This document shows positions 227 to 24,744 of a stretch of DNA of 29,218 bases, piece by piece. The notes below the pieces were generated by a model that worked only from the letters and a program-made list of their open reading frames with translations, searched no databases and was not told the DNA's origin. The position numbers and the translations under genes were made by a program. How positions within the stretch are numbered: position 1 is the first letter of the stretch; each line of letters begins with the position of its first letter. Source of the DNA: an uncultured Bacteriovoracaceae bacterium (GTDB lineage: Bacteria > Bdellovibrionota > Bacteriovoracia > Bacteriovoracales > Bacteriovoracaceae); contig CAXGUD010000044.1 in the NCBI GenBank assembly GCA_964012805.1, positions 1 to 29,218 on the forward strand, read 5' to 3'.

Positions 227-289
227 CAAACAATTCCCTAACAAAACAAAAACATTCTTAATTTAGGGATCAGTTTTTAGGAACAATCT

Positions 290-646
290 ATGAAGTTAAA
301 AGTGATGGTTTTTACCATTTTTATGATCTGTATGAGTCCTCCCTCTTACAGTGAAGACAATTTTTCTTTCATCGGTCTATCATCTAAAGGTATGCCCGTT
401 GAAGTTCTTTTTAAAAAAAATAAATGGAGAGAAAAAATAAATAAATCAATTGGAGTTATATCCCAATCTACCTTAAGATCTTTGGAAAAATTCGAAGACA
501 AGCAACTAAGCTTTAACTTTGACCAAGTTGACGTTGGCTCTTATATAAAAATGTCTTTAGGGTTGGGGGATATCGTTAAAGGGACCATTGAGCCTTATTT
601 CAAATTATTTTTTAAAAAGAATAAAACCCATAAAGCCATAAATTGA
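290..646 (+). CDS. Secreted hypothetical protein with one helix + beta-hairpin (Trypco/Pepco-like) module
   Basis: 118 aa; N-terminal signal peptide (MKLKVMVFTIFMICMSPPSYS); C-terminal FNFDQVDVGSYIKMSLGLGDIVKGTIEPYFKLFFKK matches the repeats in the next two genes. Confidence 0.8.
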   Translation: MKLKVMVFTIFMICMSPPSYSEDNFSFIGLSSKGMPVEVLFKKNKWREKINKSIGVISQSTLRSLEKFEDKQLSFNFDQVDVGSYIKMSLGLGDIVKGTIEPYFKLFFKKNKTHKAIN

Positions 647-652
647 AGCATA

Positions 653-1897
653 ATGAAAAACCTCATAATTGGAATTATCATTTTTTTTATATCTCCCCCT
701 CCTTCTCTTTCTAGAGTTGGTTATCTTTCTAATTATTGGTTTGGAGAGGTTCTTGAAAAAAAAGTCAAAGAAGACAACTTTCAATCCATAGATACATTTT
801 TAAATGATTATATAAAATCTCACTCCAATATTGGTATAGACTTTCAAAAAGGGATACAAAACCATTCCTGGTATTTTGCGGGATTCCAAACCTCATTGGC
901 CTTAGGCCTAAAGGGGAAAATAGGCATCCACTCTTGGGGTGGATCCAAAACGATTGAAATTGATTGGGAAAGAAGGAATAAAAACCAATATCCCTCCAAA
1001 ACAAGAGAAAAGCTAGATAAAAACCAAGACTTCACAAAAAATAAAAATATTTTTGTTTTTGACAATCAGATAACAGAAGAAATCATTAACTCAAGAATAA
1101 ACTTTATTATTACAAAAGCAAGAGACTCAGGAAGAGTAAGAAACCTGAATATTCTTGAAAAAGAGTTGAGAAGAGTCATTGAATCATTTCTACACATTGG
1201 TGAATCTCTAACTTCATATTCATTTAAGCGTTGGCAACCTTCTAAACTCAGACTTGACCTAGGTATCAAATCGAATGGTAAATTGGCCTTCGGCCCCATA
1301 ATTAAGACTGGTGGAGGTTTGAGGCTAAGGCTTGAATGGAAAAAAGCAAGCAACAAAAATCGTCGAAAAATAATGAACTTAAACAAGTCAGCGTCCTCAT
1401 TTTTTCAAAAATTGGAAAATATTTTAAACTCTTCTTTGTCCCTTACCAAAAAAGAGTCTTTATACCCACTTAGTTTTATTGAAATAGGCTTAGGAATTGG
1501 ATTAAAGGGTAATTTAAGTATTGCGGAAATTGGTGCATATGGAACTCCTTCTATTTTTTTCAAAAAAATGTCCTCTTTTAAAAAAGCGCTTTTTCAAAAT
1601 ACTTTTGAAGGGCCCATTTCAGGCAAAATTCTAAACAGAAGTGAAGAAAAAAATAATAATAAATCCGTTCAATATTTAAACTTAGATCAAAAAAGATTAA
1701 AAAGAGGCATTAAAAAGGCATTTAAGTTTTCCAATAAATTTATAAGGAAACTAAATAAAAAAATAAAACCTAATAGTAAATGGAGAATAAAAAAAATAAA
1801 AACCCAATTCCAATTTTCCTTAGGTGGATCCCTCGGACCTGTCAAAGTAAGCGGTATTCCCCATATAGCTTTTTACATGTTAAATACTAAAAAATAG
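653..1897 (+). CDS. Secreted basic hypothetical protein with four tandem helix + beta-hairpin modules
   Basis: 414 aa; signal peptide; Gly-rich alternating hairpins at aa 73-107, 194-231, 271-305 and 377-411; starts 6 nt after the upstream stop. Confidence 0.85.
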   Translation: MKNLIIGIIIFFISPPPSLSRVGYLSNYWFGEVLEKKVKEDNFQSIDTFLNDYIKSHSNIGIDFQKGIQNHSWYFAGFQTSLALGLKGKIGIHSWGGSKTIEIDWERRNKNQYPSKTREKLDKNQDFTKNKNIFVFDNQITEEIINSRINFIITKARDSGRVRNLNILEKELRRVIESFLHIGESLTSYSFKRWQPSKLRLDLGIKSNGKLAFGPIIKTGGGLRLRLEWKKASNKNRRKIMNLNKSASSFFQKLENILNSSLSLTKKESLYPLSFIEIGLGIGLKGNLSIAEIGAYGTPSIFFKKMSSFKKALFQNTFEGPISGKILNRSEEKNNNKSVQYLNLDQKRLKRGIKKAFKFSNKFIRKLNKKIKPNSKWRIKKIKTQFQFSLGGSLGPVKVSGIPHIAFYMLNTKK

Positions 1898-1906
1898 GGG
1901 TCATAG

Positions 1907-2170
1907 ATGAAAAAAGCATTAGTTTTTCTACTTTTAATCTCAAGCTCATATGCTTTTCCAGAGATTAACACTTTTGAAAACTGGCTTGAGGAAGAAATCT
2001 CTAATTTTAACACCGAACATAATACGTTGCAAAAAGAAAATTCAGGTCCATTAAGATTAGATAAAATTAGGTTAAGGGTCCGCCCCCTTTTTGGAATAGA
2101 AATACCAAAATTAGCGTCATTGGAAATAAAACCATTTATAGAATTTCACTGGAAAGCATCATCTGACTAG
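1907..2170 (+). CDS. Small secreted hypothetical protein with one helix + beta-hairpin module
   Basis: 87 aa; classic signal peptide MKKALVFLLLISSSYA; AGGGG RBS; LRLDKIRLRVRPLFGIEIPKLASLEIKPFIEFHWK. Confidence 0.8.
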   Translation: MKKALVFLLLISSSYAFPEINTFENWLEEEISNFNTEHNTLQKENSGPLRLDKIRLRVRPLFGIEIPKLASLEIKPFIEFHWKASSD

Positions 2171-2247: not shown

Positions 2248-4287
2248 TTAATTTTTGTTGCAACGGTGCTTATCGATAAAATTCTGCACCCTTTGCATTT
2301 TTTCCTCATCTTTTTTCAACCTTAACATTAACCTTCCCACACTGGTCGTTTTTAAAACCCTATTATTTAGCTTAATTTTTTTATAGTCATAGTCTCCACC
2401 TTTGATCATACGGTTTGCCTTATTAGCAGATTCTGCTTGCTCATAAAGGTACCGTTGATTACCTTTTCCTGCGTAGACAAAGCCCATAAACCACTTATGT
2501 CTTTTTTTAGGCTTATAAAAGGAATCCTTGTTTGATTCAATAAAGTCAAAACCAATATTAATAACCGAATGCGCGATACCCCATTGTAGTTGAAGCTTTC
2601 TTGCCTCAGCACAGTGTTCAAAACGATCACCTTTTGGTCTTGCCTTATGCTCATAATAATCAGACGTTAATTGATAGCGCCTTTCAAAGTCTTTTATATC
2701 CTTCCGACCAAACTTATTAACATATCTAACAAAGCTCTCACCCACTTGGCCATAAATTGTATCTTCTATCTTTTTAAAACTTGTTAAAATATTATTTTTA
2801 ATCCTAGTTCCATCATCGTTATTTTTAAAGACAGCGCCCGTTGTAACATTTTTTAAAAAGCGAATTCTTCCTTCAAATTTATTTTCAACAATTTCTAGAC
2901 GACGAATCCACTTTTCTGCTTGTAGTTTTGGGTTTCTAACCAAGCTAGAAATGGATTGTTTTGGGTAAGTTTTTAGAAACTCATGTCTTTTTAAGGCACC
3001 ATAAATCCACTCAATATTTGCAAAATAACTATCTTTTAAAACATCAAACCAAGCCGTTTTTACTGATTTATCGATATACCCTAAGTGGTCATGAGGCACC
3101 TTAATTGTTTTTGATCTTGTATCACTCATAAACATGGGAATAATTTTTTCTTCCTCGGTTTCTCCATTAAAAATATTTTTAAATTTTGCCATACTTTTTG
3201 GCATCTCATACTTATGAGCAAATTTTCCAAGAACGGAAGGCTTCATTTTAGGAACTTGTTCTAAAATAATTTTATAAATTTCAAAAAGTTCCTGAATAAC
3301 TTCACCTTTTACCTGGGCCGCCGTCATATCTTTGCTCCAACTTTTTGGATCTGCGCCTTTTGCCTGAATTAAATATTTTGCCCTATCCATTGCCTCTACG
3401 ACCTGAAATTCTGATAATCCCAACCTCTTCATTTTAAGAGGTCTTGTCACAAGTAATTTTTTCTTACTTTCAAAACTTTTAATCAGGACGCGAATTTCTT
3501 TTTGAAGTTTCCTAATTTTTGGTAGTTCCCGTGTTTTTTTAAATATCTCTGTTTTGTGCATATCAGTTTTAACTGAAACAATACCGGCTGCATCCATTTG
3601 ATCCTTTATATCAAAAAACGAGCAGTTGTAACTCATAAAGGTATTTCTATCTTCTTCTTTTTTCCAGTTATATTTTGATTTTAACATTATATCGATGACT
3701 TTAAGTATATTTCCAACGGCCATACCACCAGCTGCTCCAATAAAGCCATATTCATTTGGAACAAGAAGACCAAGACCTGAAACACTTTGAATAATATCGC
3801 TCATGATACTTAATACCCCCTGATCTCGGAGGCTATACTCGCATTCAGCCTTTTGAGCGATAAGGCCAAATGTACTTAAACTTTTTGAAACCATTTCAAC
3901 TCTAGCTTGATTTTGTATATAAATAGCATCTTCTTTTGTATGACCTTCAAATCGCTTTCCAGCATCTACTTCGGCTTGATAAGTCTGGTTAATATCGTTA
4001 ATTGAGCTATTTAGTGTCGAAAATAAAGCGCCGTTTTTTGAGGTGCATTCCTTATCAAGAGAGGCCTTAAGGGCCGTCAAAGCATCAGCAATATTTGCAT
4101 TGGCCTTTGATTCTAGAGGACAACTTTTTGGTCTTAAGGTAGTCTTTTTGATTTGAAAATGATATTGGAGTTTCTCCAACATAAACTTAGCTTCACTTAT
4201 TTTGGCCGACAAATTTCTATTTGTTATGCCATAAGAAGAAAATGATGTTACTAACATCATTCCTATTATTAGAGTTTGAAATCTCAT
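2248..4287 (-). CDS. Large secreted, mainly alpha-helical hypothetical protein with an internal Gly-rich hydrophobic hairpin
   Basis: 679 aa; GGAGGA RBS; signal peptide; 6 Cys; segment GVLSIMSDIIQSVSGLGLLVPNEYGFIGAAGGMAVGNILKVIDIML. Confidence 0.85.
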   Translation of the reverse strand: MRFQTLIIGMMLVTSFSSYGITNRNLSAKISEAKFMLEKLQYHFQIKKTTLRPKSCPLESKANANIADALTALKASLDKECTSKNGALFSTLNSSINDINQTYQAEVDAGKRFEGHTKEDAIYIQNQARVEMVSKSLSTFGLIAQKAECEYSLRDQGVLSIMSDIIQSVSGLGLLVPNEYGFIGAAGGMAVGNILKVIDIMLKSKYNWKKEEDRNTFMSYNCSFFDIKDQMDAAGIVSVKTDMHKTEIFKKTRELPKIRKLQKEIRVLIKSFESKKKLLVTRPLKMKRLGLSEFQVVEAMDRAKYLIQAKGADPKSWSKDMTAAQVKGEVIQELFEIYKIILEQVPKMKPSVLGKFAHKYEMPKSMAKFKNIFNGETEEEKIIPMFMSDTRSKTIKVPHDHLGYIDKSVKTAWFDVLKDSYFANIEWIYGALKRHEFLKTYPKQSISSLVRNPKLQAEKWIRRLEIVENKFEGRIRFLKNVTTGAVFKNNDDGTRIKNNILTSFKKIEDTIYGQVGESFVRYVNKFGRKDIKDFERRYQLTSDYYEHKARPKGDRFEHCAEARKLQLQWGIAHSVINIGFDFIESNKDSFYKPKKRHKWFMGFVYAGKGNQRYLYEQAESANKANRMIKGGDYDYKKIKLNNRVLKTTSVGRLMLRLKKDEEKMQRVQNFIDKHRCNKN

Positions 4288-19834: not shown

Positions 19835-20620
19835 TTAGATTTTCTCAGTATTTGAAGGTACCAATTGCCCCAAAACTCTGTAAATAGATCTTCTCATTTT
19901 TAAAAATGCTTTATAAATGCTGGTGGCAAGTACTTTCCAATCAAAGACGCCAAGGCAAACAAGTTCTTCCCCTTGTTCCCAATTGGGGTTTTTTTCAAGA
20001 AAAAACTTGATTTTTTGATAGCGGCTTAACAATATATCATCAACCGGTGCAACAGACTTTTTCAAGGAGTCGTAATTATTTCCAAAGCACAATGTTTTTG
20101 TTTCTGGGTTATAAGCATCAGGATAATTTTGCATAGAAAATTCATCCATGACTTCTTCCATCTCTTTTGGAGTTTTTACTTTAGGGTTAGGATAATATTC
20201 TGGAAAGTTATTTGCCAGAAGCAGATACGTTTTAAATCCTTTAGAAATTAAAAACCAATAGAGAGGCTCAAAAGGCTTCTTATATTTTTCTTTAAGAAGA
20301 TAAAAAGAAAAGGCAATATTTAATGCCCTATCGCCCCAGAATTCTTTTTCAATAATTGTATCACCACTAAAAATACCTCTTACTTTTTTACCTGAACTTA
20401 AATTAAAGTTAATATGCTTTAGTGTGGAAAAACCTTTTATCATATCATCACGGCGGCTTCTTAAAATAATGACCTTATCTTTATTGAGCAGATCTTTTTC
20501 AAATTTTTCTCGGGTCGCATTTTCATAATACTTTTCATAAATACTAAACATTCTACATCTTTCAGGAAGATTTAGTTCTTTAACTAAAATTATATCTGCT
20601 TTTAATTTACTGCCTTTCAT
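19835..20620 (-). CDS. Conserved GNAT-like (acyl-CoA N-acyltransferase fold) protein
   Basis: 261 aa; IKGFST, FSGDTIIEKEFWG, YWFLISKGFKTY, FF..NP.W..GEELVC; ATGA overlap with the upstream gene. Confidence 0.75.
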   Translation of the reverse strand: MKGSKLKADIILVKELNLPERCRMFSIYEKYYENATREKFEKDLLNKDKVIILRSRRDDMIKGFSTLKHINFNLSSGKKVRGIFSGDTIIEKEFWGDRALNIAFSFYLLKEKYKKPFEPLYWFLISKGFKTYLLLANNFPEYYPNPKVKTPKEMEEVMDEFSMQNYPDAYNPETKTLCFGNNYDSLKKSVAPVDDILLSRYQKIKFFLEKNPNWEQGEELVCLGVFDWKVLATSIYKAFLKMRRSIYRVLGQLVPSNTEKI

Positions 20621-23532
20621 TTTAATTGACCTTCATCACTATTAAAAAACCCCTTCTTCGAAAGAGTTTTGTATTGATTAAGTGATAATTTATTTCTCAA
20701 CTTAATTTCGGTTTTCTCATTTCCACACCAAAGTACCTTTAGCTCTAGAGAGTTACTATTAAGAGCATAATCACCTAAACCAAAATGAACTCTTGTATCA
20801 TTTTGGGCCGAAAAACCAGTCGATAAACTAACCTCTCTAACTTGGAAAACCTGTTTTCCTTTTTTATTTTGGTAATGAAGCTCCACTCTTGTTCCAATAG
20901 CTTGCCTTGAGCAATTTTTAAAAGATCCTTTATGAAAGTCATATTGAAGATTTAATCCTATAAAAGGATTTTTTTCTTTTTCACCTTCGTTCCACTTATT
21001 TTTAAATAAAGTTGGGTTTGAAAATATATGAGTAACAACTAAGTCCATCAGACCATCGTTATTAAAGTCAGCTGCTGCCATTCCTCTTGAGTTTAAGGCT
21101 TCAGTCATACCGATTTCTTCAGATACATCAATAAAGCGAACACCATTTGCTTTACCTGTGTTTAAATAAAGTCGGTCTTTTTCATTACCATAAATACAAT
21201 GACCTCTTATATCACCCCAATTGTGAGCATACCTGTGAATAGAAGGTGCCGACCTAGCTATTTTTTCATTTACATACCAATAGTCTGGACAATTTTTTTG
21301 AGTTCTATCTATTTTATCATCTACCATTCCATTGGCCTGAGAAATATCCAAGTGACCATCATTATTAAAATCCACAATTGAAGCTCCCCAGCCAAACCTT
21401 TGTTCATTGAGAGCACCGAGTTGGGTTGCTTCGTCCTTTATTAAAGGTTTTTTAAGACCCAACTCTTCGATATTACCCTGAGCTTCTTTTTGACCTTCTT
21501 TAGGGTAGAACATCCAAAGAAGACTTCCCTCTGCTTGCATCGCATGATGAACATTTGAAACATAAATATCTAAATAACCATTTCTATCAACGTCACCAAA
21601 GGATGCATTCATTCCCTTATAAGTATCTTTCCCAATAGATCCAAAAAGGTTTCCTTCTATTTTTTTAAGGCCTTGTCCAAAATTATTATAGTAAAGATTG
21701 TCAGGACCGAAATCATTTGCAACATAAATATCTGTCCATCCGTCTCTATTAAAATCCCCAGTTGTTAGTGCAAGAGTCCAAAAAGTCTCGGGTAACGCCA
21801 ATTCTTTCTTTTCAATAAACGTTCCTTTCTTTGTTTGTATTAAAAGAATATTTCTTCCGCCATTATCGGCCATATGCCAACTAGCATGCATAAAATTAAA
21901 CATTCTTTTATCACCTTCATACTCTTTTTTAGGAAGGTTAAAAAGATTTAGCTTTTTAGGATTTTCTTTAGGGTAATCAGGTAGGTTTTCAGGCCAAACT
22001 TGTCCTATAATTACATCTAAAAGTCCATCTTTATTGAAATCAAAGAAGGTGGCACTAACGGAGTTGGTGTAAAATTTATCAAACCCTAAATCTTTGGTAA
22101 CATCTTTAAATTTTGCTTTACCTCTTTCATTCAACATATTCTTAAGCATAATAGAATGTCCAAAAGCATAAGAAAGAAAAAGATCTAAGTCCCCATCATT
22201 ATCATAATCAACAAATTGAGCATTCGTATTAAGACCAAACTCTTCAATTTGATCAGGTCTGTTTTTTAAAGCAGGTAATTTTACCCTTTCAAATGAAAAA
22301 TCGCCTTTATTTTTATAAAGGGCGCTCCTGTACTTTCCCTTTTTTAATATATTCGTTAGAAAAATATCTACCAAACCATCATTATCATAATCACCGACAC
22401 TAACTGAATCACCAACACTTAAAAGCCATTTGGAAAAGTGTGTTATTCTTGGATCAACCCTCTTAAGAACATTCCCAAATTCGCTTCCCAAGTTAGTCTT
22501 ATTTAAAGGAATTGTATTAAAACTAAAGCTTAACTTTTCTAACGATGGAGTAGGCAAAATTTTTGATTTGTAAACGGTCACACCAAAAAAGGCAATGGCA
22601 GATAAAATAAAAAGTTTTATCAAAAGTCCTTTTATCTTATTAAATGTATTTTTTATTCCAACTTTTCTAAATTCCCGAGAATGAAGAAGAAAAAGTTTCC
22701 CAAGTTGAAGCGTAAGGCCTGCATAAAAAAAAGTATAATAACTTTGCTTAATATGAAAAATGAGGTCCAATACTGCTAATAAACTCCCCGTAATAATCTG
22801 ACTTTTTGTATCGCTTGGTGACGTTTTTGGGTCCGTTATCATAAAAAAGGTAAAGAGAAAAAATGCTGGAGAAGTTAATGTCCCCAGAAAGAGGGTTTCA
22901 AAAGGCAGATGGTGCTTCATCAACCAAGCTCTTAGGGCCGTTTGAAGAGTAAAAACAGCTAAAAAAGAAAATACCAAGGGAAAACGCTTAACCTGAGGTA
23001 CCAGAAAAAATAAACCAAAACCAGCAATGAAAGCCCCCATAGCGCCAATACCATTCCACTGGTAAGCGGGAGAAGATGTTATAAGATGTCCACAAAAAAT
23101 TAATGAAAAACTCACCCCTGCTTGAGCGGGATTTAAAATGTGGCGACCTTTAAAGGTTAAAATATGCTTGCTTCCGATTGCAAAGAAAACTGGAACCAAA
23201 AGAAGATAGTGTCCATGTGAGTAATTCAAGAGGAGTGACAGTGAAAAACTAGTAATAAGAGCACTTAAAGGAAAGAATAACTTTCTTTTATCTTTAGGAC
23301 AAAATAAATTATAAAAGGTCAATTCACATAAAAGGGCGGCCAAACTTGTAATTATAATTTGGGTAGGCTCCCTATTAAAGCCCAATACTGTTACACCTAA
23401 AACTAAGTAAGAAAAAAGAAGGAGAGCGATCCTCGCCCTCGGATCAAGGAAGCTTTTTATCTTTTGTAAAAAAGTAACCAGTGATGAGGTAGGTGTCTTT
23501 AAAAAATAAGGCTGTAAAATTGTATTTTCCAT
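20617..23532 (-). CDS. Fusion of RnfD/NqrB-like (UnbU-type) membrane domain with FG-GAP/VCBS beta-propeller and ASPIC/UnbV domain (CRTAC1 family)
   Basis: 971 aa; N-terminal ~320 aa polytopic with AIGSKH...GRHILNPA and FFMITDPKTSP; seven D-x-D/N-x-D/N-G-x-x-D repeats; C-terminal AIGTRV...STGFSAQNDTRVHFGLG. Confidence 0.9.
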   Translation of the reverse strand: MENTILQPYFLKTPTSSLVTFLQKIKSFLDPRARIALLLFSYLVLGVTVLGFNREPTQIIITSLAALLCELTFYNLFCPKDKRKLFFPLSALITSFSLSLLLNYSHGHYLLLVPVFFAIGSKHILTFKGRHILNPAQAGVSFSLIFCGHLITSSPAYQWNGIGAMGAFIAGFGLFFLVPQVKRFPLVFSFLAVFTLQTALRAWLMKHHLPFETLFLGTLTSPAFFLFTFFMITDPKTSPSDTKSQIITGSLLAVLDLIFHIKQSYYTFFYAGLTLQLGKLFLLHSREFRKVGIKNTFNKIKGLLIKLFILSAIAFFGVTVYKSKILPTPSLEKLSFSFNTIPLNKTNLGSEFGNVLKRVDPRITHFSKWLLSVGDSVSVGDYDNDGLVDIFLTNILKKGKYRSALYKNKGDFSFERVKLPALKNRPDQIEEFGLNTNAQFVDYDNDGDLDLFLSYAFGHSIMLKNMLNERGKAKFKDVTKDLGFDKFYTNSVSATFFDFNKDGLLDVIIGQVWPENLPDYPKENPKKLNLFNLPKKEYEGDKRMFNFMHASWHMADNGGRNILLIQTKKGTFIEKKELALPETFWTLALTTGDFNRDGWTDIYVANDFGPDNLYYNNFGQGLKKIEGNLFGSIGKDTYKGMNASFGDVDRNGYLDIYVSNVHHAMQAEGSLLWMFYPKEGQKEAQGNIEELGLKKPLIKDEATQLGALNEQRFGWGASIVDFNNDGHLDISQANGMVDDKIDRTQKNCPDYWYVNEKIARSAPSIHRYAHNWGDIRGHCIYGNEKDRLYLNTGKANGVRFIDVSEEIGMTEALNSRGMAAADFNNDGLMDLVVTHIFSNPTLFKNKWNEGEKEKNPFIGLNLQYDFHKGSFKNCSRQAIGTRVELHYQNKKGKQVFQVREVSLSTGFSAQNDTRVHFGLGDYALNSNSLELKVLWCGNEKTEIKLRNKLSLNQYKTLSKKGFFNSDEGQLK

Positions 23533-23540
23533 AGCATCTG

Positions 23541-23569
23541 ACTATAGACCTAGTCCTAAACGACCTCAA
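23541..23569 (-). promoter_or_regulatory. Putative sigma70 promoter giving a (near-)leaderless transcript
   Basis: Minus strand TTGAGG-N17-TATAGT ending 8 nt before ATG 23532; no Shine-Dalgarno sequence. Confidence 0.5.
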
Positions 23570-23736
23570 GAAAAGCCTTCAAAAGAGTGTAAATCTTTTA
23601 TGGGTTTTACTTTCATCAAAATGGTTATAAGTGACTTATTCACTAAGCCCACTCCAAGTGATTGTTTTTATTGGGGTATATAACACTTACCTACAGTCAT
23701 TGACGCAATTTATTAGTAGGTGTATGTCACATAATT

Positions 23737-24744
23737 ATGACTAAGACACAAAAAAAATTATTAATGATAGGCTTAACTCTTACAATTCTCATTTTGTGGT
23801 CTCTTGGCATGACTCTTTTTAATAATTGGGAAAAATTTATTAACTTTTGGCCTATTACTCTGATGATGGCATTTGGATCTTTTATCGCGGGAGCAACTAC
23901 TGAAGGTGGGGGAGCTGTGGCATTCCCCGTTTTGACCCTCTTTTTTGAGATACCTCCGGTTATGGCCAGAGATTTTGCGTGGATGATACAAACAATTGGA
24001 ATGGGAACGGCGGCTTTTTCAATTTTAATTTACAAAACACCTTTTTATAAAAAGGTCATCCTTCCAATTTCTCTTGGAGGGCTTCTTGGGCTATACCCTG
24101 GTATGAAATTCCTTGCTCCTCTTGTCCCACCAAACTACTGTAAGATTTTTTTTACCTCCCTCTGGTTAAGCTTTGGTGTCTGGATTTTAATTATTGAAAA
24201 AAGGAAAAGAAAATTAAAAGTAAGGGATAAACAAAATGATAACTTTTCTTTACCTCTAACTAAAAAAAATACCTTCATTCTTTTTTCAATTGGCCTTATC
24301 GGAAGTCAAATCTCGTCATTAACTGGTACAGGTTTAGATTTATTTTCTTTTTCCTTCCTAGTCCTTTATTTTAATCTTGACCCAAAGAAAGTTACTTTCA
24401 CTTCAATTATTTTAATGGCGGTCAATTCACTATTCGGATTCCTCATGAAAATTGGCCTGGGCGGCCCAGCTCCCGAAACATGGTCAATGTGGTGGGTAAG
24501 TGTTCCGATTGTTATTTTTGGAGCTCCATTAGGCGCAGCATTTATTAAAAACAAGTCTAAAAACTTTGTCCTATCCCTTTTAGTTGTGATTATTCTCATC
24601 CAATTTATTATGAGCTACCTAATTGTGAATATGACTTTTGAACTCTATCTTTTCAGTTTTCTAATATTTATTTTTGGGTTTTCTTTTTTCTTCTTTGTTT
24701 ATTCCAAAATGAATTTTAAAAATATCAAACTTACCTACTCATAA
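23737..24744 (+). CDS. Sulfite exporter TauE/SafE (TSUP) family membrane protein
   Basis: 335 aa, highly hydrophobic; GSFIAGATTEGGGAVAFPVL in the first half, SSLTGTGLD in the second half, GAPLGA. Confidence 0.88.
   Translation: MTKTQKKLLMIGLTLTILILWSLGMTLFNNWEKFINFWPITLMMAFGSFIAGATTEGGGAVAFPVLTLFFEIPPVMARDFAWMIQTIGMGTAAFSILIYKTPFYKKVILPISLGGLLGLYPGMKFLAPLVPPNYCKIFFTSLWLSFGVWILIIEKRKRKLKVRDKQNDNFSLPLTKKNTFILFSIGLIGSQISSLTGTGLDLFSFSFLVLYFNLDPKKVTFTSIILMAVNSLFGFLMKIGLGGPAPETWSMWWVSVPIVIFGAPLGAAFIKNKSKNFVLSLLVVIILIQFIMSYLIVNMTFELYLFSFLIFIFGFSFFFFVYSKMNFKNIKLTYS

Follow-up and report, generated by a model that had tools for sequence, protein, structure and literature searches.

In the available parts of the literature, the Trypco1 (PF19493) and Trypco2 families are named after neighbouring genes for trypsin-like peptidases (PMC7159879; 10.64898/2026.01.04.697583), and Pepco (PF24393) is described as a protein of 117 amino acids whose gene adjoins that of a sensor-fused protease and whose 9-10-mer forms a barrel with an exposed, hydrophobic exterior, a charged lumen and amphipathic helices at its base (10.1101/2025.11.14.688446). 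The same partly available source likens Pepco to MACPF, reports that its toxicity is switched on by removal of the C-terminal tail, and so far presents it solely in the role of a cytoplasmic death pore gated by a protease (10.1101/2025.11.14.688446). Here we analyze three genes, designated A, B and C, in a stretch of 29,218 nucleotides (hereafter the window) from an uncultured Bacteriovoracaceae bacterium (assembly GCA_964012805.1, contig CAXGUD010000044.1). An earlier note on this DNA had described them as an operon of secreted proteins that might co-assemble a barrel. We propose an exported three-chain Pepco barrel that acts as a small-solute channel in the outer membrane of the producing cell when metals or inorganic nutrients are limiting, a reading to which we give roughly an even chance. 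This system was not found described in the open-licence literature searched.

Six copies of one module

The open reading frames (ORFs) of the triad are as tightly spaced as the earlier note had stated, with gaps of 6 nt between A and B and 9 nt between B and C, and the six segments that it had singled out begin where it placed them, at residues A75, B73, B194, B271, B377 and C49 (Table 1). Comparison of single sequences related 3 of the 15 segment pairs at p<=0.005 (1000 shuffles), and none of the five pairs involving C reached significance. At the level of profiles, built from alignments of 38 A, 149 B and 32-34 C rows, all 15 module pairs matched, with hhalign probabilities of 79-98% and scores of 25.8-53.9; column-shuffled controls (20 for each pair) stayed at or below 18.1 and reversed profiles at or below 26.1. 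The claim of six copies (1+4+1) of one helix plus amphipathic hairpin module is thus borne out by profile similarity among all the segments. Gene A aligned with the R5 region over 87 columns (hhalign probability 96.7%).

In the strands of all six modules hydrophobic residues alternate with polar or small ones across 14-18 residues per strand, and mean hydropathy is +1.7 to +2.7 on the outer face and -0.9 to -2.3 on the inner face. One face of each hairpin is hydrophobic and nearly uncharged, and the polar face is charged toward the base and carries small residues toward the tips. The inner face has a mean net charge of 0 and no conserved His, Cys or Met. An uncharged hydrophobic outside combined with a polar inside in every module would give the assembly a membrane character, as in Pepco so far as the available part of its description goes (10.1101/2025.11.14.688446).

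Kinship with Pepco

The resemblance to Pepco and Trypco domains that the earlier note had pointed to was recovered in searches with B homologues. Four of the 12 closest homologues passed the Pepco cut-off of 27 bits, as did 37 of 110 distant ones (a Pfam scan of 110 of the 149 alignment members, with hits counted by hand); 78 of these 110 reached E<=0.05, and Trypco1 was passed by two. The best Pepco-matching stretches of B homologues land on each of the four repeats, and A and C connect to the B modules through profile-profile matches and cross-hits of hidden Markov models. Neither canonical Pepco nor Trypco1 was found in the genome from which the window comes, and among 101 genomes of the class the Pepco-type matches were triad B solely. 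The alignments of A and C hold no conserved Ile of the Pepco cleavage-site type after the last strand, and their tails are variable or absent. Judged by these profile matches, A, B and C are Pepco-built, yet form a variant distinct from the Pepco-protease defence module, since they lack two of its defining features, a protease partner and a single cytoplasmic chain.

Predicted arrangement of the hairpins

The AlphaFold2 model of B (mean predicted local distance difference test, pLDDT, 81.7; predicted template-modelling score 0.84) contains four helix-hairpin units with hairpin tips of low confidence; inserted after R2 and before R3 are a strand and a helix. Structure searches, in which the models were incomplete barrels of >400 residues, yielded no clear match, with a best Foldseek E value of 0.13 and best VIA-align Z scores of 2.4 and 3.6. 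Weak tunnelling-fold rows in these searches span R2 and R5 jointly, which is below significance and fits adjacency of R2 and R5. A sequence search of the PDB returned a single row (E 0.051).

Mean-field covariation analysis was carried out with 149 and then 228 B sequences and with 78 paired triads. With 228 sequences, all four intra-hairpin ladders of B were recovered, and the best ladders between hairpins were b1(R3)-b2(R4) and b1(R5)-b2(R2); the b1(R4)-b2(R5) ladder was weaker, yet is represented among the top single pairs (273-407, 271-411). The paired triads gave b1(A)-b2(C), b1(C)-b2(R3) and b1(R2)-b2(A) as the three top ladders between chains. When the register was taken from conserved aromatic anchors, five of the six links of the resulting ring had identical registers and the sixth was off by two residues. 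With one common register imposed throughout, the ring partner was the highest-scoring match for every first strand of the six (0.49-1.11, compared with -0.41 to 0.51 for the other 24 combinations), and the cycle A-C-R3-R4-R5-R2 was the best of 120 (0.78; next 0.57), neighbouring registers being lower. This cycle also came first, though less clearly, when a reduced alphabet was used. When A and C were re-paired among the B sequences, none of 312 permutations reached the observed 0.70 (null maximum 0.40).

From these couplings the six hairpins are likely to form one ring in the order R2-A-C-R3-R4-R5, with 12 strands per set, and the co-assembly of six hairpins into 12 strands proposed in the earlier note thereby gains both support and a specific order. 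The ladders and the best cycle place A and C, most likely, in the gap between R2 and R3, the site of the long insert of B. A 2:2:2 ring of 24 strands would fit the covariation equally well as a 1:1:1 ring of 12; a few inner-face couplings between R3 and R5 lean weakly to the narrow, 12-strand ring, for which a C-alpha diameter of about 22-24 Å was computed. Two other arrangements were considered. A ring in gene order, A-R2-R3-R4-R5-C, was rejected, the links R5-C, A-R2 and R2-R3 scoring -0.41, 0.02 and -0.26 at the common register, and closure of B alone into an eight-strand barrel is disfavoured by the same value of -0.26 for direct pairing of R2 with R3.

Distribution of the triad

The B family comprises 394 clusters at 50% identity, 150 of which were drawn on in the analyses of B; forms of B of up to 909 residues were searched. 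Of 301 sampled Bdellovibrionota genomes, 27 have B, and these belong to five families; the counts by family were 53 of 236, 10 of 75, 9 of 182 and 3 of 34 genomes. Named relatives carry the labels Bacteriovoracales, Halobacteriovoraceae, Bdellovibrionales and Oligoflexia. Counting without one locus with a broken B (L046) and one remnant (on contig C91, below), we distinguished 94 B loci: 78 with A, B and a separate C, eight with A and a B-C fusion (in some genomes C is naturally fused to the end of B), five cut by the end of the contig or locus, and three unexplained. All six modules therefore stand in A-B-C order at 86 of 94 Bdellovibrionota loci, a conservation of the triad that the earlier note had left to be checked.

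Presence is patchy: B was found in one of 44 genomes of genus g103 and in none of six of genus g4, both rich in near-complete genomes, which argues that the triad is not part of the core predation machinery. Genomes may carry up to 3-4 paralogous triad loci, plus decayed copies. The genome of the window has a second complete triad on contig C12, no extra stand-alone A or C, and on contig C91 the remnant of a third copy (L002 1053-1466), in which about 40 final codons of B and a C broken within its hairpin are left, A and most of B being gone. Elsewhere, two triads stand in tandem in one genome (L170 1206-4846), and two others face each other with a run of fetBA-fec transporter genes between them (L056 4975-15125). 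In a divergent subgroup (L047, L048 and L049) A and C are shortened or helix-less, and the first two of these loci lie behind carbonic-anhydrase-like genes. Plasmid and phage collections, queried with one B homologue, gave no match, and the ESM Atlas gave one lead at 0.77, a Bdellovibrionota cluster.

Export signals and upstream elements

Signal-peptide-like N-termini, which the earlier note had read as signal peptides on all three proteins, recur across the family: a hydrophobic-stretch heuristic, used in place of a dedicated predictor, called a hydrophobic signal-like N-terminus in all 38 A and all 34 C homologues and in 146 of the 149 B homologues. The same kind of heuristic identified lipobox-like motifs in 19 of the B homologues, in 7 of the A homologues and in none of the C homologues, which would support placement in the producer's own envelope. 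Fifty of 149 B homologues end in N-x-x-F, an ending that we take to recall the terminal Phe signal of outer-membrane barrels. Many A and C homologues carry Pro-rich C-terminal tails; many others are tail-less.

In several loci a palindrome lies 50-70 bases before A. Its matrix was built from nine sites away from triads, which were picked by eye, strong intergenic sites alone being used. Sites of >=18 bits stand 5' of A at five of the 38 first-set loci and at four of the 44 held-out ones (nine of the latter at >=14 bits), compared with 4 of 3697 ORFs of the window's own genome. Those four top sites precede the gene before the C12 triad (191 bases from A, on the same strand), a FecR-domain gene, a bacterioferritin gene and a flavodoxin gene. 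Palindrome sites of 20-22 bases (L085 3562, L083 2885 and 3874, L086 3012, L069 1501, L067 1501, L072 1501, L081 3031 and L082 3126) stand before genes for flavodoxin, bacterioferritin, a solute-binding protein, a FecR-domain protein, a porin-like protein, DUF4856, a HiPIP and small lipoproteins. The set has the apparent composition of an iron regulon, and two DtxR/MntR-like regulators and one Fur-like regulator encoded in the same genome as the window are candidate binders of the palindrome. Allowing two mismatches, it was not enriched genome-wide (44 sites in five genomes, where the reversed control gave 53), and a 19-base palindrome from a motif sampler did no better than shuffled controls. 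A 15-mer resembling the Fur consensus was present at >=12 of 14 positions in 3 of 82 upstream regions. The direct-repeat pattern of the window (Table 1), defined after the first set had been viewed, recurs in five of the 38 upstream regions of the first set and in two of the 44 of the held-out set, compared with 4 of 3697 in the window's own genome.

Gene neighbourhood

Neighbours within about 1.5 kb were surveyed as 100 ORFs from 40 loci (first set) and 120 ORFs from 49 held-out loci, with 94 ORFs from 20 stretches at round coordinates in carrier genomes as control. None of the 220 neighbouring ORFs encodes a trypsin-, caspase- or subtilisin-type protease or a STAND sensor, which extends to the family the absence of an adjacent protease remarked on in the earlier note; other peptidases (C92 in one genus, Rce1-like, rhomboid, M16 and C15) are scattered near the loci, and a DegP-like gene lies about 2.4 kb upstream of A at L056. 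Nor do the Pfam hits of these 220 ORFs include any secretion or pilus gene. Families of metal or inorganic transport, porins or metalloregulators account for 12 of 100 first-set and 12 of 120 held-out neighbours; the control has 2 among its 94 ORFs (Fisher p 0.011 for the first set and 0.025 for the held-out set).

The plainest instances form co-directional runs with the triad. The run porin(OprB)-A-B-C-DtxR/FeoA-FeoB adjoins a magnetosome-like cluster (L054, L055, L087 and L123); such clusters (mamA, mamQ, mamB/M, mamE-like) were seen in two genomes (L087 9055-18728, L088 4737-13801, L054 and L055), and magnetosome genes are reported in this phylum by the part of the source available (PMC13200544). 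At L056 the triad is followed by fetB, fetA and a ferric-citrate-type ABC transporter (fecB-like, fecCD and ATPase genes). Other co-directional runs are A-B-C-cbtA-like-cbi (cobalamin genes; L090 and L169), the bicarbonate transporter gene sbtA followed by PII, one further gene, A and B (L060), a gene for a phosphate-type binding protein (pstS-like) followed by A-B-C (L058), and porin-carbonic-anhydrase-like-A-B-C (L065); both L064 and L065 have carbonic-anhydrase-like genes and a porin upstream. Methylmalonyl-CoA mutase and meaB precede A-B-C at L093, ZnuA lies downstream at L136, and PepSY-TM adjoins seven loci. The genomic context leans towards the producer's own envelope and nutrient limitation over prey membranes, a choice between membranes that the earlier note had not made.

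A GCS2-family gene, a PepSY-TM gene or both are the commonest neighbours of one triad subgroup (L018, L050, L092, L142, L154, L165, L166, L171 and L135), possibly a linked metal-acquisition pathway. A Gly-rich, exported-looking protein of 359 amino acids without a Pfam hit is encoded convergently to the C12 triad (L001 6734-7813, plus strand). Near three triad loci there are look-alike lipoprotein-like genes without a known family (L001 16794-17558, L002 1490-2434 and L062 11693-13053).

Proposed mechanism and its alternatives

In the mechanism that we favour, A, B and C would be exported separately. B would fold into an open eight-strand sheet in the order R3-R4-R5-R2, and C and A, folding after export, would bridge R3 and R2; the pore could then close in the periplasm only. 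Splitting of the barrel across chains would preclude closure in the cytoplasm and thereby stand in for the protease gate of cytoplasmic Pepco. The barrel would then enter the outer membrane from the periplasmic side, Gly-rich hydrophobic hairpin tips first, leaving a periplasmic base of helices, aromatic residues and, in some A and B homologues, a lipid anchor; the assembled channel would pass small solutes at times of scarcity. We regard insertion into a membrane as probable. The origin is more conjectural: we suggest, with somewhat more doubt than confidence, that a phage-defence suicide pore was domesticated as an outer-membrane nutrient channel of a new class, in which the three chains, exported one by one, interlock in a fixed order and assembly replaces the protease switch, and that in Bdellovibrionota it was repeatedly recruited to loci for the uptake of iron, cobalt, zinc, phosphate and bicarbonate, some of them beside magnetosome clusters.

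A number of observations weigh against the channel. The A, B and C of the window match no Pfam or NCBIfam model directly, its B falling below the Pepco cut-off, and Pepco was reached at E<=0.05 by none of 38 A and none of 34 C homologues. With 78 triads the covariation is shallow and individual pair scores are noisy; two of the six rows miss their ring partner at the common register in the reduced-alphabet run, and the permutation of A and C strips shared ancestry along with contacts. The model of a natural B-C fusion (overall pLDDT 79.6) has a C hairpin of pLDDT 46-62 that is covered by nine rows, and helix-to-strand couplings such as 250-394 would fit helices lying over much of the outer face. 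As to context, the uptake category was set after a first look, the loci are kin and some held-out ones are congeners of the first set; about nine in ten neighbours have no uptake relation, and the locus in the window has no uptake neighbour and a palindrome score of 1.5 in the 289 bases 5' of A. Since the linked solutes (iron, cobalt, zinc, phosphate, bicarbonate) differ from locus to locus and the inner face offers neither conserved His, Cys or Met nor a mean net charge, the observations single out no substrate. Iron control is, moreover, also typical of secreted cytolysins.

That last point bears on a use as a weapon, in which the same three-chain barrel would be released or handed over in predation or competition and assemble in the membrane of prey or competitor, iron control tying killing to the need for iron. 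Homology to a demonstrated pore-forming toxin (Pepco), a phylum of predators, and paralogous loci numbering 3-4 at most per genome, with decayed copies, all suit such a role; the three-chain split would shield the producer, and an immunity gene would be needless if assembly requires a foreign membrane. We nevertheless consider it unlikely in view of the lipobox-like signals of part of the family, the co-directional runs with porins and uptake systems, the near-absence from g103 and g4, and a neighbourhood whose Pfam hits include neither secretion nor pilus genes. A soluble periplasmic barrel, with helices covering the hydrophobic exterior and a charged lumen binding or buffering a small ligand for neighbouring transporters, seems no more probable than the weapon. 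Strands of 16-18 residues with an outer face uncharged throughout, hydrophobic tips and a lumen without conserved metal ligands fit it poorly, as do, in the available part of the Pepco description, the basal helices and the exposed, hydrophobic barrel exterior (10.1101/2025.11.14.688446). It would account for the amphipathic helix of 14-25 residues in each module, for the further helices of B and for helix-strand couplings that rank among the strongest (176-227, 179-201 and 359-386), and the uptake context suits a binding protein no less than a channel.

The tails of A and C suggest a further alternative, in which the producer's own envelope carries a stress or death pore (for defence or controlled lysis) that is triggered when an unlinked periplasmic protease trims them. 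Canonical Pepco is activated through loss of its C-terminal tail, according to the part of the source available (10.1101/2025.11.14.688446), and Pro-rich tails end many A and C homologues; the many tail-less homologues, the absence of a conserved protease, sensor or defence gene among the 220 neighbours, and the phage and plasmid collections that gave no match to the one B homologue queried make this quite improbable.

The exported, order-specific three-chain form without a protease would represent a toxin barrel made safe through splitting and reused. As a channel, it would show a further way in which different chains can jointly make up an outer-membrane pore, and it would be a candidate entry path for iron in Bdellovibrionota, magnetotactic ones included. 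As a weapon, it would be a candidate for a pore that damages prey, in predators about whose means of killing little is known.

Features of the locus

The triad of the window sits at the start of the contig, with 289 bases available 5' of A, and its sole neighbour is a convergent gene (2248-4287, minus strand) for a protein of 679 amino acids that begins with a signal-like stretch and belongs to no family of Pfam or NCBIfam. The hairpin that the earlier note had seen after the operon exists; its T-run is on the minus strand, which by pattern makes it a terminator of the convergent gene. Farther away, at 19835-24744, there is a presumed membrane protein of 971 amino acids, whose long soluble portion is rich in repeats (FG-GAP/ASPIC-type in appearance), by a 261-amino-acid gene and a presumed TauE-like permease.

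Table 1. Features of the triad locus in the window (positions refer to the 29,218-nucleotide stretch; aa, amino acids)
Feature	Position	Strand	Description
Imperfect direct repeat	227-242	+	Two 5-mers, 11 bases apart; 5' of A; candidate regulator site
Gene A, 118 aa	290-646	+	ORF; signal-peptide-like N-terminus (about residues 1-21), N-terminal short beta-hairpin (IGL motif), amphipathic helix, single Pepco-like long hairpin
Hairpin of module A (residues 75-110)	512-619	+	Pairing partners predicted from covariation: R2 of B at one edge, C at the other
Gene B, 414 aa	653-1897	+	ORF; signal-peptide-like N-terminus and four Pepco-like modules, R2-R5
Hairpin R2 (B73-107)	869-973	+	Preceded by helix B44-57
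R2-R3 long insert (B109-164)	977-1144	+	Linker, short strand, helix B142-159; putative site of insertion of A and C
Hairpin R3 (B194-231)	1232-1345	+	Preceded by helix B165-188; most conserved charged inner face (R200, D202, R224, R226, E228)
Hairpin R4 (B271-305)	1463-1567	+	Preceded by helix B245-261; inner face Gly-rich
Hairpin R5 (B377-411)	1781-1885	+	Preceded by helix B346-370 and a gene-A-like beta-hairpin
Gene C, 87 aa	1907-2170	+	ORF; signal-peptide-like N-terminus, helix, single Pepco-like hairpin at 2051-2155
Stem-loop	2193-2213	-	T-run on minus strand; terminator-like for the convergent 679-aa gene, possibly shared

Comparison with known systems

The triad shares with Pepco and the Trypco1/Trypco2 families, as far as the available part of the Pepco source describes them, a helix followed by a long amphipathic hairpin, a hydrophobic outside with a charged inside, and a barrel (predicted for the triad) to which several units contribute hairpins (10.1101/2025.11.14.688446). 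It differs in having export signals, four fused modules plus two single-module chains, and a predicted fixed order, whereas Pepco is described in that part as a 9-10-mer of one cytoplasmic chain; the strand number would be 12 per triad set, compared with 18-20 there. In place of the protease, sensor and defence context given for Pepco in the same part, the triad has no adjacent protease or sensor and an uptake context.

Among other assemblies, oligomeric outer-membrane lipoprotein channels of the CsgG type are also formed by exported subunits, some of them lipid-anchored, which contribute hairpins to a shared barrel over a periplasmic alpha/beta base. CsgG is a homo-oligomeric secretion channel, whereas the triad has three different chains, and no sequence or fold match between them was found. 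The bicomponent leukocidins and the complement membrane attack complex build one barrel from different but homologous chains in a set order after secretion; the modules of the triad are far smaller, have no receptor-binding domain and gave no sequence or fold match to these proteins. With single-chain 12-stranded outer-membrane barrels the triad has in common the predicted strand number and the two-faced strands, and it departs from them in its predicted order of the 2-1-4-3 type, in the helices between hairpins that replace a continuous meander, and in a barrel that would be shared by three chains.

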